Origin: Deltaproteobacteria bacterium RIFCSPLOWO2_12_FULL_60_19
GTDB lineage: Bacteria; Desulfobacterota; Binatia; UBA9968
Assembly (NCBI GenBank): GCA_001798595.1
Contig: MGSS01000051.1
Coordinates: 6,270 to 70,269 of the forward strand
Direction: 5' to 3'
Length of the DNA stretch: 64,000 nt
The translations under genes and the position numbers were made by a program. The first letter of the stretch is position 1. The number at the start of each line of letters is the position of its first letter. Of the stretch, positions 29,224-59,038 are shown one piece after another. The notes under the pieces are model-generated. The model saw only the letters and a list, made by a program, of their open reading frames with translations. It had not been told where the DNA came from and made no database searches.

Positions 29224-29421
29224 TTAAAAGTAGTGGCTGCGAGAGCGCCGCAGCGCTCTCTTTTTCGCGGCTATCGCCTTTTTCTTCCGCTTGACGCTCG
29301 GCTTTTCGTAGTGTTCGCGCTTGCGCAACTCCGCGAGAATGCCGGCCTTTTCGCACAGCTTTTTGAAGCGCCGGATGGCGCTCTCGATGGATTCGTTTTC
29401 TCTAACTCTGATTCCGGTCAT
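29224..29421 (-). CDS. rpsU: 30S ribosomal protein S21
   Basis: 65 aa. ...[38 protein letters not shown]... Confidence 0.9.
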
Positions 29422-29654
29422 CGGTATGAATCACCCCCCACTCCTCCGTGGCCCAGAAATTTACTGCTCTTAAAATCGCAATTCTAACGGATTCATGCCT
29501 CAAGTCAAGCTAACCATCGGCCCGGATACCGCCGGGGCGCGCGAGCCGCATCTCCGGCGCAGACGGATCTTCCGGAGCGGCCTGAAACGGTCGAGAATCC
29601 TGTCCCACATCGATCGAAGCGGGTTTGCAGCCCGGCACGAGCCGCAGGGTCTCA

Positions 29655-29786
29655 CTAGCAGGACGCTGAAAAAAGCCGCTCGTGCTTCGAGTCAGCACGA
29701 ACGGAAATTCTCCGATGATTTCAATCCATCCTCCGTTCGTCCTGAGCTTTGTCGAAGGATGAACGGAGTTTTTCGGCACCCTCTAG
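29655..29786. repeat. ~133-bp nested-hairpin palindromic repeat, copy 1
   Basis: CTAGCAGGACGCTGAAAAAA-[inner hairpins CGTGCT...AGCACG and CTCCGTTC...GAACGGAG]-TTTTTCGGCACCCTCTAG. 90% identical to the copy at 58213-58347. Confidence 0.75.
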
Positions 29787-29809: not shown

Positions 29810-30859
29810 TCAGTTATAAAGAACCTCTTTGAGCTTGGCGATCAGCCCCGGGTCGAGCTTGAACAGCCCGGAGATGATCTTCTCCGCTTCGTCGCCGGGC
29901 ACAAGCCGGATTCCCAAATCGGCCTTCTTCGCTTCCGCGATGAACTCCGGGTCCTTCAAAGTCTCCTCAAAGGCCTTGCGCAAAAGCTGCGCGCGGTCTT
30001 TCGGGGTTCCCGGCGGCAGGGTATAAGTGCGGACGATCTCGCTGTCGCCGTGGATTCCGACCTCGATCATCTTACGCCCTTCGTCGCTCTTCGCGAGGCT
30101 CAACGCCTGGGGCACTTTCGGAAGATCGGGGTGAGTCCTGCGGTTGGCCTGTAAGACGACCATCGCGTCGCCCGACTCCAGCGCCTTGCGCCAGGTAACC
30201 CTCACGGACTCCCAACCCCAACAGCCGCCCGCCAACTCTCCGCTCTCCGCCGCCAGCCGGATATCCGCCGTTCCCTTGTACCCGGAGACGAGCTGGATGG
30301 GCAAGCCTGCCGCCGCTTTGATGATCCGGGTGGCATTGTCGGGGGTGGAGGTGCCCGGCCCGACGCCGCCCATTTTAACCGGCGTCTTCGACGCCGCCCA
30401 TCGCTCGACGCTGGTAATGCCACTGGCCTTGGTGAAGGCGCAGACCACGTGGTCCGTCGTCGGTGCGCCGATGAATTCGAATTTTCTGGCGTCGAACTCC
30501 ACGCCTTTCTGCCCCAAGACCTGGCCCAGAAACAGGCCGCCGATGAAATGGCCGATCGTAAGACCGTCCGGCTTAGCTACCTTATAAACATGGTTGGCGG
30601 CGATCAGGCTGCCCGCGCCCGTCATGTTGTCCACGATCACGGTAGGGCTGCCGGGAATGTGTTTGCCGAGATAGCGCGCTAGCGCCCGCGCGTAGGTATC
30701 GAAACCTCCGCCCGCGGAAAAACCCACGACGATCCGTATCGTCTTGCCGCTGTAAAACTGCTCTTGCGCGTAGACCGACGCGGTCAGAGCCAAAACCAGG
30801 AACAGACCGAGGCAACAGAAAACCAAACTCTTGATGCCGGAACCGTATCTAACTTTCAT
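29810..30859 (-). CDS. Tripartite tricarboxylate transporter substrate-binding protein (Bug/TctC family), orphan
   Basis: Signal peptide plus KTIRIVVGFSAGGGFDTYARALARYL...PDGLTIG, characteristic of Bug-family SBPs. No tctA/tctB adjacent. Confidence 0.7.
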   Translation of the reverse strand: MKVRYGSGIKSLVFCCLGLFLVLALTASVYAQEQFYSGKTIRIVVGFSAGGGFDTYARALARYLGKHIPGSPTVIVDNMTGAGSLIAANHVYKVAKPDGLTIGHFIGGLFLGQVLGQKGVEFDARKFEFIGAPTTDHVVCAFTKASGITSVERWAASKTPVKMGGVGPGTSTPDNATRIIKAAAGLPIQLVSGYKGTADIRLAAESGELAGGCWGWESVRVTWRKALESGDAMVVLQANRRTHPDLPKVPQALSLAKSDEGRKMIEVGIHGDSEIVRTYTLPPGTPKDRAQLLRKAFEETLKDPEFIAEAKKADLGIRLVPGDEAEKIISGLFKLDPGLIAKLKEVLYN

Positions 30860-31716: not shown

Positions 31717-32466
31717 TTACGCAGTTCGGTCCGCTTTGCGCAAGTAGATGAAGAATTCTTTGTTCCCCTTCGGGCCGAGCAGCGGCGATTCCACCACTCC
31801 GAGCGCTTCGAATCCGAACGCGACAGCCGCAGCCTTGATCTCTTCGATCACGCGCGCGTGCTCCCCGGCGTCGCGCACGACGCCGCCTTTGCCCACTTTT
31901 CCCTTGCCGACTTCAAATTGCGGCTTGATCAGCGCCACGACCTCGCCGCGCGGCGCGAGCAGATCGCGGACCTTGGGAAGGACCAGGCGAAGCGAGATAA
32001 AAGAGACATCGATCGTGGCGAGTTGTGGAGCCTGGGGAAGCTCTGCGGGTTCAAGAAAGCGGATATTTCTCTTTTCCAGGACGACGACGCGCGGATCGTT
32101 TCGGAGTTTCCAGTCGAGCTGGCCGTAGCCCACGTCCACCGCGAAGACCTGCCGGGCGCCGAAGGTGAGGAGACAGTGCGTAAAGCCGCCAGTCGATGCG
32201 CCCACGTCGAGGACAAACTTATCTTCGACGTCCATGCCGAACTCTCTCAGCGCCTTCTCCAGCTTAACGCCGCCGCGGCTGACGTAAGGCGGCGCGCCGC
32301 CCTTCAGCCGGATCGCCGCGTCCGGATCGATCAAGCTGCCGGCCTTGGTCGCGGGGCGGTCGCCGACGAAAACCTCGCCTGCCAGAATTCGGGCCCGCCC
32401 CTCCTCCCGGCTCTGAACCAGCCCGCGCTCGACCAACAGCTTGTCTAGGCGCTCCCTCTTTCCCAT
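31717..32466 (-). CDS. tlyA: TlyA-family rRNA 2'-O-methyltransferase (S4 domain plus FtsJ-like MTase)
   Basis: RLDKLLVERGLVQSREE (S4). VLDVGASTGGFTHCLL (SAM-binding). Confidence 0.8.
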   Translation of the reverse strand: MGKRERLDKLLVERGLVQSREEGRARILAGEVFVGDRPATKAGSLIDPDAAIRLKGGAPPYVSRGGVKLEKALREFGMDVEDKFVLDVGASTGGFTHCLLTFGARQVFAVDVGYGQLDWKLRNDPRVVVLEKRNIRFLEPAELPQAPQLATIDVSFISLRLVLPKVRDLLAPRGEVVALIKPQFEVGKGKVGKGGVVRDAGEHARVIEEIKAAAVAFGFEALGVVESPLLGPKGNKEFFIYLRKADRTA

Positions 32467-57946: not shown

Positions 57947-58216
57947 TTGATTATACACCCATCAGCCATCAAACGTCACCGGCAAAGCCTGAAGAAAAGG
58001 GCTAAGAACAAGGAAGCCAAGTCCCGGATACGAACCCTGATTAAGAAAGTCCATCAGGCGATAGAGGCAAAGAACCGAGAGGTCGCCTCGCTTCATCTGA
58101 GAGAGGTCAACCGGGCTCTCGGTAAAGCGGTAAGTCAAGGGATTCTGAAGCGAAACACCGCGTCCCGCTGGTTGTCTCGCCTCGCCCGCTCGGCCAGCCA
58201 ACTCGTCGCCGCCTAG
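57947..58216 (+). CDS. rpsT: 30S ribosomal protein S20
   Basis: ...SAIKRHRQSLKKRAKNKEAKSRIRTLIKKVHQAIEAKN... Start codon position uncertain. The TAG stop lies inside the terminal CTAG of the repeat. Confidence 0.8.
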   Translation: MIIHPSAIKRHRQSLKKRAKNKEAKSRIRTLIKKVHQAIEAKNREVASLHLREVNRALGKAVSQGILKRNTASRWLSRLARSASQLVAA

Positions 58217-58347
58217 CAGGATGCTGAAAAAAACCACTCGTGCTTCGAGAGCCAGCACGAACGGAAATTCTCCAATGATTTCAATCCATCCTCCGTTCGG
58301 CCTGAGCTTTGTCGAAGGATGAACGGAGTTTTTCAGCAACCTGCTAG
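58213..58347. repeat. ~135-bp nested-hairpin palindromic repeat, copy 2
   Basis: CTAGCAGGATGCTGAAAAAAA...TTTTTCAGCAACCTGCTAG. Both terminal CTAGs coincide with the stop codons of the convergent rpsT (+) and lptE-like (-) genes. Confidence 0.75.
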
Positions 58348-58915
58348 AACATCTCAAGCATTCGTTGGAGCATATCCCGCGACGCCCGCTCCATCAGCCG
58401 GTCGCGCGCCTCCTGCTTAAGAGTCTCGGTGAGTTGCACGTCCGTGAAGCGCGGCACATCCGCCGCGTTCAGCGGGCGCGATTTGAACTCCGAGGAAGTT
58501 GTCACCACCGCTCCCCTCGATCCGCTGTAAACCTCGGCGAACCGGATGCCTTGGGTCCGCCAAAGGACTTCGTCGGGAGCCCGCCGTCGCAAAGTCATGT
58601 CTAAAACCATCGTCAGCTCATACTGCAGCGCCTCGTCGTTGCGGTTGGTGCCGACCGCGCGGCTGTCGTAACTGCGCACGACCCCGCTGACGATCGCATC
58701 CGCCTGATCCAGCTGGGTGACCAACCTAAGGTGCCTCTTTTGGCGTAGCTCGTTTTTGAGCGCCGCCGTGACCTCCCCTTCGACCCCCACCTCCCGCGTC
58801 CGGTTGACCAAAGTCTCAACGAAAACCTTCTGCACGTCTTTGGGAAACGCCTCGCCCTTCGCAGAAAAGCCGTAGCCGCAACCAGCCACCACCAACCCCA
58901 CCAAGGCAAGCAAGC
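58344..58915 (-). CDS. lptE: LptE-like LPS-assembly lipoprotein (start uncertain, probably non-ATG)
   Basis: Lipobox LVGLVVAGCGYG. Position immediately downstream of leuS (conserved leuS-lptE pairing). About 180-aa mature protein. The 5' part of the annotated ORF lies in the AT-rich repeat. Confidence 0.5.
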
Positions 58916-58923
58916 CCCCCGTC

Positions 58924-59016
58924 CAATTTTGAATTTTGAATTTTGAATTTTGAATTTTAGATTTTAGATTCCAATTACAAACTAAAAACTCAAAACTTAA
59001 AACTTTTGCATTTTGC
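58924..59016. repeat. AT-rich heptad palindromic element, copy C
   Basis: AATTTTGAATTTTGAATTTTGAATTTTAGATTTTAGATT ... CTTTTGCATTTTGCATTTTGCC. Confidence 0.7.
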
Positions 59017-59038
59017 ATTTTGCCGTGTCCTCTCATCT

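Follow-up and report, generated by a model that had tools for sequence, protein, structure and literature searches.

Two copies of a small non-coding MITE with IS5-type ends and CTAG insertion sites in an uncultured Binatia genome

The window, which is the whole 64 kb stretch of DNA that was analysed, contains two copies of a palindromic element, one close to rpsU and the other between rpsT and lptE. Copy 1 (29655-29786) lies 23 nt past the stop codon of a TctC/Bug-type gene and upstream of a promoter-like site for rpsU; an earlier description of this DNA (the initial annotation) had placed it between the Bug-family gene and the rpsU leader. The promoter-like site is sigma-70-like and strong, with 10 of 12 matches. 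Copy 2 (58213-58347) occupies the entire gap between the convergent genes rpsT and lptE. Both copies are flanked by CTAG tetramers. The genes and features at the two loci are as follows.

29224-29421, minus strand: rpsU
29481..29508, minus strand: rpsU promoter-like site TTGACT-16-TAGAAT, downstream of and outside copy 1
29655..29658, no strand: CTAG, target-site duplication of copy 1, one side
29659..29782, minus strand: body of MITE copy 1, subfamily B, reading (C)AGGGTGCCGAAAAA...TTTTTTCAGCGTCCTG
29666..29704, minus strand: terminator-like site in copy 1, with an 11-bp stem (7 G-C), a 7-nt loop and CTTTTTT
29783..29786, no strand: CTAG, target-site duplication of copy 1, other side
29810..30859, minus strand: TctC/Bug-type periplasmic binding protein gene, upstream of copy 1
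57947..58216, plus strand: rpsT, ribosomal protein S20 (PF01649 on orthologues)
58213..58216, no strand: CTAG, target-site duplication of copy 2; 58214-58216 is the TAG stop of rpsT (plus strand)
58217..58343, minus strand: body of MITE copy 2, subfamily B, with ends CAGGATGCTGAAAAA (plus strand) and CAGGTTGCTGAAAAA (minus strand)
58227..58264, minus strand: hairpin CCGTTCGTGCT-(9-nt loop)-AGCACGAGTGG followed by T7 in copy 2, in the lptE direction
58291..58333, plus strand: hairpin CTCCGTTC...GAACGGAG followed by T5, with an 8-bp stem and a large, partly paired loop, in the rpsT direction
58344..58347, no strand: CTAG, target-site duplication of copy 2; 58344-58346 is the TAG stop of lptE (minus strand)
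58344..59036, minus strand: lptE (PF04390), convergent with rpsT

The two copies are 132 nt and 135 nt long with their CTAGs and are 91.9% identical over 135 aligned columns, in good agreement with the value of about 90% given in the initial annotation. In MITE copies the body between the duplicated targets measures 125-127 bp. When 30 nt of flanking DNA was included in the alignment, the similarity was confined to the CTAG-bounded stretch and the flanks were unrelated. No third copy was found within the 64 kb window. Terminal inverted repeats are present in both copies, as CAGGATGCTGAAAAA and CAGGTTGCTGAAAAA in copy 2 and in a slightly decayed form in copy 1, where the TTTTTTCAGCGTCCTG tip is affected. 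The CTAGs of copy 1 are not the stop of any real gene, and those of copy 2 coincide, as had been noticed before, with the TAG stops of rpsT on the plus strand and lptE on the minus strand.

RNA folding predicts that either strand of each copy forms one long imperfect hairpin, with dG values of -54.6 to -63.1 kcal/mol and z scores of -4.8 to -9.1 relative to dinucleotide shuffles, and none of 200 shuffles folded as well. The hairpin folding described in the initial annotation is seen in both copies and on both strands, as is the T-run that it had placed after the last hairpin. Its outer stem with two inner hairpins is an alternative pairing of the bases that form the single long hairpin; in 38 members of the family, 88% of cells are paired in this layout. 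The left inner hairpin also varies in length at its apex: variants of copy 1 (L010:1676-1740, L007 and L216) carry an extra hairpin of 65 nt at this position, and internal hairpin additions of 24 nt or of other kinds are found there in L019, L045, L067, L068, L051, L052 and L070.

The element has no coding capacity, and the ORFs that run across it are spurious and not conserved between the copies. Two such ORFs, one of 89 aa at 29510-29779 and one of 131 aa at 57962-58357, both on the minus strand, are artefacts of the repeat. The former has been annotated publicly as a hypothetical gene, for example at L009:2544-2813.

The distribution of the element was determined by scanning a 19-base exact core pattern over 185,579 species-representative genomes, which returned 77 loci. 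Of these, 66 proved in a profile search to carry the complete element, and the remaining 11 are chance matches inside genes. These 66 further copies are spread over 24 MAGs (at most 13 per MAG with the 19-base exact seed), and their flanks are unrelated to each other. The host MAGs are mostly labelled Candidatus Binatia or 'Deltaproteobacteria', and homologues of the window LptE also carry the name Candidatus Binatia. Contigs of the same population from several metagenomes contain both window copies, and in many cases the contig end falls within the element, because assemblies break at repeats. The earlier proposal of a mobile, dispersed, MITE-type unit is therefore well founded, on the evidence of copy number, unrelated insertion contexts, target-site duplications (see below) and assembly breaks.

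The window itself displays only two copies, as would be seen if a local terminator had undergone segmental duplication in this genome; such an origin is scarcely credible, since the similarity stops exactly at the CTAGs and dozens of copies elsewhere have unrelated flanks. The two copies are neither the only ones nor embedded in longer duplicated sequence, and a third, diverged copy is located just outside the window. The unrelated flanks among the 66 copies exclude segmental duplication. The third copy (L001:1139-1268, about 3.8 kb past the 3' end of the window) belongs to subfamily A, with ends GATTCTGCTGAAAAA; it starts 1 base after the TAA stop of ribD, and its other end is 22 nt short of the ATG of an ABC substrate-binding gene. 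Two hybrid arrangements were observed in ERZ27254836: at L006:11074-11321 the Bug-type gene and a hybrid element are joined to a different flank, and at L216:2080-2290 an EamA gene and a hybrid element are joined to rpsU. Either MITE copies have recombined with each other to give these hybrids, or the assemblies are chimeric at the repeat.

Searches of Rfam at gathering and permissive thresholds gave nothing relevant; the best match was a plant miRNA precursor (27.9 bits versus a cut-off of 130), a sub-threshold hit explained by the element being a long hairpin. No similar DNA was found in a plasmid collection, and the literature searched for the terminal repeat sequence and for Binatia MITEs contained no mention of either. 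The repeat family from uncultured Binatia thus appears to be undescribed, though its kind is well known.

Both window copies adjoin a ribosomal-protein gene, rpsU or rpsT, as the initial annotation emphasised. The observation is correct and the link is coincidental, as neither gene was found near the element at any of the 66 other loci, each covering a few kb. The adjacency and the strong fold could be taken as signs of a structured RNA gene, or of a ribosomal-protein leader RNA duplicated beside rpsU and rpsT. This reading is highly improbable, given that copy 1 lies upstream of the rpsU promoter-like site, copy 2 follows the rpsT stop, orthologous rpsT loci do not carry the element, other loci lack rpsT and rpsU, and no Rfam family is matched.

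Members of the family have in common the sub-terminal sequence TGCTGAAAAA and a core with about 80-85% identity, and fall into two types, A and B. Subfamily A is the commoner type and ends in GATTCTGCTGAAAAA. Subfamily B, to which both window copies belong, ends in CAGGNTGCTGAAAAA and is flanked by CTAG on both sides or, in L026, by CTAA/CTAA. Subfamily A has about 80% core identity with the window copies and has the sub-terminal TGCTGAAAAA in common with them, but its tip bases are GATT instead of CAGG, and its duplication is 6-7 bp long and AT-rich, in contrast to the 4-bp YTAR duplication of the window copies. Exact 6-7 bp AT-rich direct repeats lie directly outside the ends in 18 of 38 distinct full copies of subfamily A, and several more copies have direct repeats with one mismatch. 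When left and right ends are paired by shuffling, fewer than 0.1% of the pairings have direct repeats of this kind, which shows that transposition moves the shared core.

A full-length partner of subfamily A was sought in two ways: no inverted pairs of its ends at IS distance were found in the related loci, and a scan of viral contigs gave chance matches only. The idea that subfamily A targets the loops of pre-existing hairpins was discarded, as 18 reconstructed empty sites were not unusually structured (mean z -0.2). Short tandem repeats border several subfamily A sites (GTTCAAG x3, TGAACACCT x3, GGGTCAG and GTGTCC), for example at L046:3900-4100, L045:1790-1835, L040:400-440 and L049:6400-6450.

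Elements with the ends of subfamily B were identified by scanning metagenome contigs with CTAGCAGGNTGCTGAAAAA, which gave at least 120 matches. Among the matches listed, at least 22 full-length elements of 1.26-1.38 kb are bounded by the same inverted ends, and about 60 elements of MITE size have these ends and diverse interiors. The 1.26-1.38 kb elements contain a single ORF of 364-369 aa with DUF772 and DDE_Tnp_1 domains, and the ORF scores 254-274 bits against NF033581 (NCBIfam 'IS5 family transposase'; cut-off 140). Among the named elements in annotated records, ISAzs10 from Azospirillum sp. B510 is the closest, with 61% identity. The 15-nt repeat of the ISAzs10 clade is CAGGNTGC(T/G)GAAAAA, and insertion sequences of Methylocella tundrae and Bradyrhizobium ottawaense carry the exact repeat of the MITE, CAGGCTGCTGAAAAA. 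For this clade, the ends and flanks were also read in cultured isolates, where they are free of any bias from the search pattern.

ISAzs10 (Azospirillum sp. B510): repeat CAGGCCGCGGAAAAA, flanks TTAG/TTAG
Bradyrhizobium ottawaense element: repeat CAGGCTGCTGAAAAA, flanks TTAG/TTAG
Azospirillum brasilense element: repeat CAGGGTGCGGAAAAA, flanks CTAA/CTAA
Methylocella tundrae element: repeat CAGGCTGCTGAAAAA, flanks CTAG/CTAG
Skermanella sp. TT6 element: repeat CAGGCTGCGGAAAAA, flanks CTAG/CTAG
Skermanella mucosa element: repeat CAGGCTGCGGAAGAA, flanks CTAG/TTAG

The MITEs display the same variation, with CTAA/CTAA in L026, TTAG/TTAG in L156 and CTAG/CTAG at both window copies. The terminal repeat of E. 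coli IS5, an autonomous element of 1.2 kb, is GGAAGGTGCGAATAAG, which is different from that of the MITE. E. coli IS5 belongs to the same family and has the same 4-bp duplication, of 5'-YTAR-3' (PMC5009759). The flanking tetramer co-varies on the two sides; thus, it represents a 4-bp YTAR target-site duplication, and neither a part of the element nor a TA duplication. The CTAGs, which the initial annotation regarded as the termini of the element, are instead the duplicated target of an IS5-family system. At L161:1367-1400, two IS5-type element ends abut head to head with one CTAG in common, as expected if one element had inserted into the duplicated target of another.

A different assignment was considered, in which the element would be a MITE of the IS630/Tc1-mariner type that targets CTAG, duplicates only the central TA and itself extends from GCAGG to CCTGC. 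IS630 inserts at CTAG with duplication of TA, and TA is also duplicated by Correia elements. Among the metagenome matches listed, mixed flanks (CTAG/CTAA in four cases and TTAG/CTAG in one) fit such a model without any mutation; however, the search that yielded them demanded CTAG at one of the two ends, and each differs by a single transition. The full-length elements with these ends encode IS5-family and not IS630-family transposases, and in the samples free of search bias the tetramer co-varies, with TTAG/TTAG twice and CTAA/CTAA twice. The TA-duplication model was rejected on these two grounds and is left with very little probability.

The intergenic position, the palindromic shape and the length of about 130 nt are also reminiscent of a REP/BIME-like palindrome moved by a RAYT (IS200/IS605-type), or of a Correia or ERIC repeat, and the initial annotation had described the unit as REP-like. 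REP/BIME sequences are palindromes of 20-40 nt with a GTAG head and no target duplication, whereas the present palindrome is about 130 nt long, has target-site duplications and no 5' GTAG head, and bears terminal repeats that match DDE-type IS5 elements. The duplications and the IS5 partners rule out a REP/BIME origin, Rfam and the plasmid collection offered no similarity, and the whole group of explanations merits almost no credence. The element is not a Correia or ERIC repeat. Correia-type elements and the window MITE are alike in being short, dispersed, palindromic intergenic repeats with terminator-like hairpins, and such repeats can affect neighbouring transcripts (PMC10969869, a review). 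Correia elements and the pneumococcal SPRITE are functional analogues only (PMC10969869); their sequences and hosts are unrelated.

The copies are ordinary small non-coding MITEs with IS5-family ends and a CTAG insertion site, and the two in the window are very probably 125-127 bp MITEs whose CTAG targets were duplicated on insertion. They share with the ISAzs10 clade the 15-nt repeat, identical in the Methylocella and Bradyrhizobium elements, and the 4-bp YTAR duplication. The insertion sequences of this clade, including those of Skermanella, encode a transposase; the window MITE does not. Its hosts are uncultured Binatia, in which no partner IS has yet been seen: a search of the 64 kb window and of about 0.6 Mb of related Binatia loci for an IS5-type transposase found none. 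More than 8000 transposase homologues are listed without taxon labels. Only the 15-nt repeat is common to the MITE and the full-length IS examined, and the sub-terminal sequence differs. Therefore, the MITE is not a simple internal-deletion derivative of these IS.

A comparison with orthologous loci, which had been proposed as a check, is possible at copy 2, where element-free rpsT/lptE loci were found. LptE orthologues with 94% (L089-L091), 87% (L213), 79% (L214) and 65% (L092) identity all end in ...LEMF-stop at the same codon, with TAG or TAA as the stop. In L089-L091 and L092 the rpsT gene also keeps the position of its stop, with the ending ...(V/T)AA-stop, and this stop lies within CTAG or TTAG; the end of rpsT is readable only in the 94% and 65% loci, whose contigs reach this gene. 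Since the orthologues stop at the same codons, the element created neither stop, and the suggestion in the initial annotation that insertion had created or replaced both of them is not tenable.

The relatives carry an unrelated spacer of 77-89 nt between the two stops, starting TAAACAGTGCTGAG. In L090 this spacer (L090:1660-1748) is 89 nt long, is predicted to form a hairpin of -36 kcal/mol and is presumably the native terminator. The spacer, present also in L089, L091, L213 and L214, is built from GCTGAG-like short repeats and is locus-specific, with no occurrence elsewhere among the sequences compared. Because the 94%, 87% and 79% relatives have it in common, the spacer is ancestral, and its removal took place in the window lineage. 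By this comparison of sequences, the MITE appears to have replaced an ancestral hairpin spacer. The junctions of the four relatives are not clean empty sites, as they have no element and a different spacer. For copy 1, no empty site was found. It was also considered that rpsT and lptE might once have had overlapping stops within one CTAG, duplicated by a single insertion; this was rejected because the four relatives have the 77-89 nt spacer.

The simplest route to the arrangement at copy 2 would comprise two steps. A transposase of the ISAzs10 clade, acting in trans, would cut the element out and insert it at a YTAR site, in this case CTAG, so that a copy of the site flanks the element on either side. 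Both stops, of rpsT and of lptE, are ancestral and lay in YTAR sites 89 nt apart, and the element would have entered one of them. The old spacer would then have been lost, either through a deletion between the CTAG/TAG repeats on its two sides or when the transposase made an adjacent deletion that reached the second YTAR site. Either route would give TTC-TAG-[element]-CTA-GGC, and the duplicated CTAGs would now coincide with both stops as a result of the spacer loss.

As CTAG reads TAG on both strands, duplication of a CTAG that contains a stop codon keeps a stop facing the gene, and insertions that preserve the stop in this way survive selection. For the elements among the metagenome matches listed, an ORF of 200 codons or more has its stop in the flank and directly adjoins the element at 21 of 194 ends, compared with 79 of 2034 other CTAGs in the same loci (odds ratio 3.0, p = 8e-5). 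The stop coincidence is thus an expected by-product of target choice and purifying selection. In the window, CTAG is 6.5-fold under-represented, with 36 sites, four of them MITE flanks, where base composition predicts 235; the related tetramers are commoner (CTAA 82, TTAG 50 and TTAA 76). A site at 32445, where a convergent gene pair seemed to share a CTAG, proved to be a tandem overlap with an antisense ORF.

Each strand of the element contains a hairpin followed by a T-run, and a role as a terminator is plausible from these predicted structures. The site at 29666..29704 passes a terminator scan and is oriented to stop the upstream TctC/Bug-type gene. Of the two copies, only copy 1 has a site scored by the scan; the hairpin at 58227..58264 in copy 2 has the same stem, with a loop that exceeds the scanner limit of 8 nt. 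Terminator shapes on the plus strand are weaker than those on the minus strand. Copy 2 is the only sequence left between the two convergent genes, and its replacement of a native hairpin spacer points, suggestively only, to a terminator role. From the modelled hairpins, the element may well now terminate its flanking genes, a prediction held at roughly even confidence. The T-runs belong to the terminal repeat of the transposon and need not have been selected for termination.

A stronger version of this idea would make the double-hairpin core a mobile terminator module, kept by selection on its structure for termination or RNA stability and fitted with two sets of transposon tips, CAGG with the 4-bp YTAR duplication and GATT with the 6-7 bp duplication, that spreads in Binatia genomes through host benefit by replacing native terminators, with rpsT/lptE as an example. 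Several observations are consistent with it. The same core, about 80% identical, bears both tip and duplication types; the 11-bp stem abuts the T-run in the window copies; copy 2 took the place of a hairpin spacer between convergent genes; neighbouring genes present their 3' ends to the element more often than their 5' ends (48 versus 33), with few intergenic sites of the divergent type (1 of 23), both estimated from a crude ORF call. The inner hairpins owe some of their continued pairing to compensatory changes (13 doubly changed cells versus 3.2 in shuffles), but this covariation is weak and derives from few independent events. Moreover, in subfamily A many copies are located within probable operons, only a few bases ahead of a start codon, and strong termination there would do harm; the family consensus separates the stem and the T-run by 5-8 nt; and the inverted repeats alone account for the palindromy and the A/T runs. 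A host-selected terminator cassette is accordingly regarded as unlikely, and the preferred reading is that of an ordinary MITE.

The repeat family fragments Candidatus Binatia assemblies and may drive rearrangements in these genomes. The element should be masked or modelled in binning, assembly and annotation, as spurious ORFs of 89-131 aa are otherwise called across it. The rpsT/lptE junction provides one clear case, as judged from sequence comparison, of a MITE lying in place of a native hairpin between convergent essential genes, and it bears on the exaptation of mobile elements as terminators. Transposons that duplicate YTAR, above all at the palindrome CTAG, can enter a stop codon without destroying it; such elements accumulate at gene ends and can seem to 'donate' stops.
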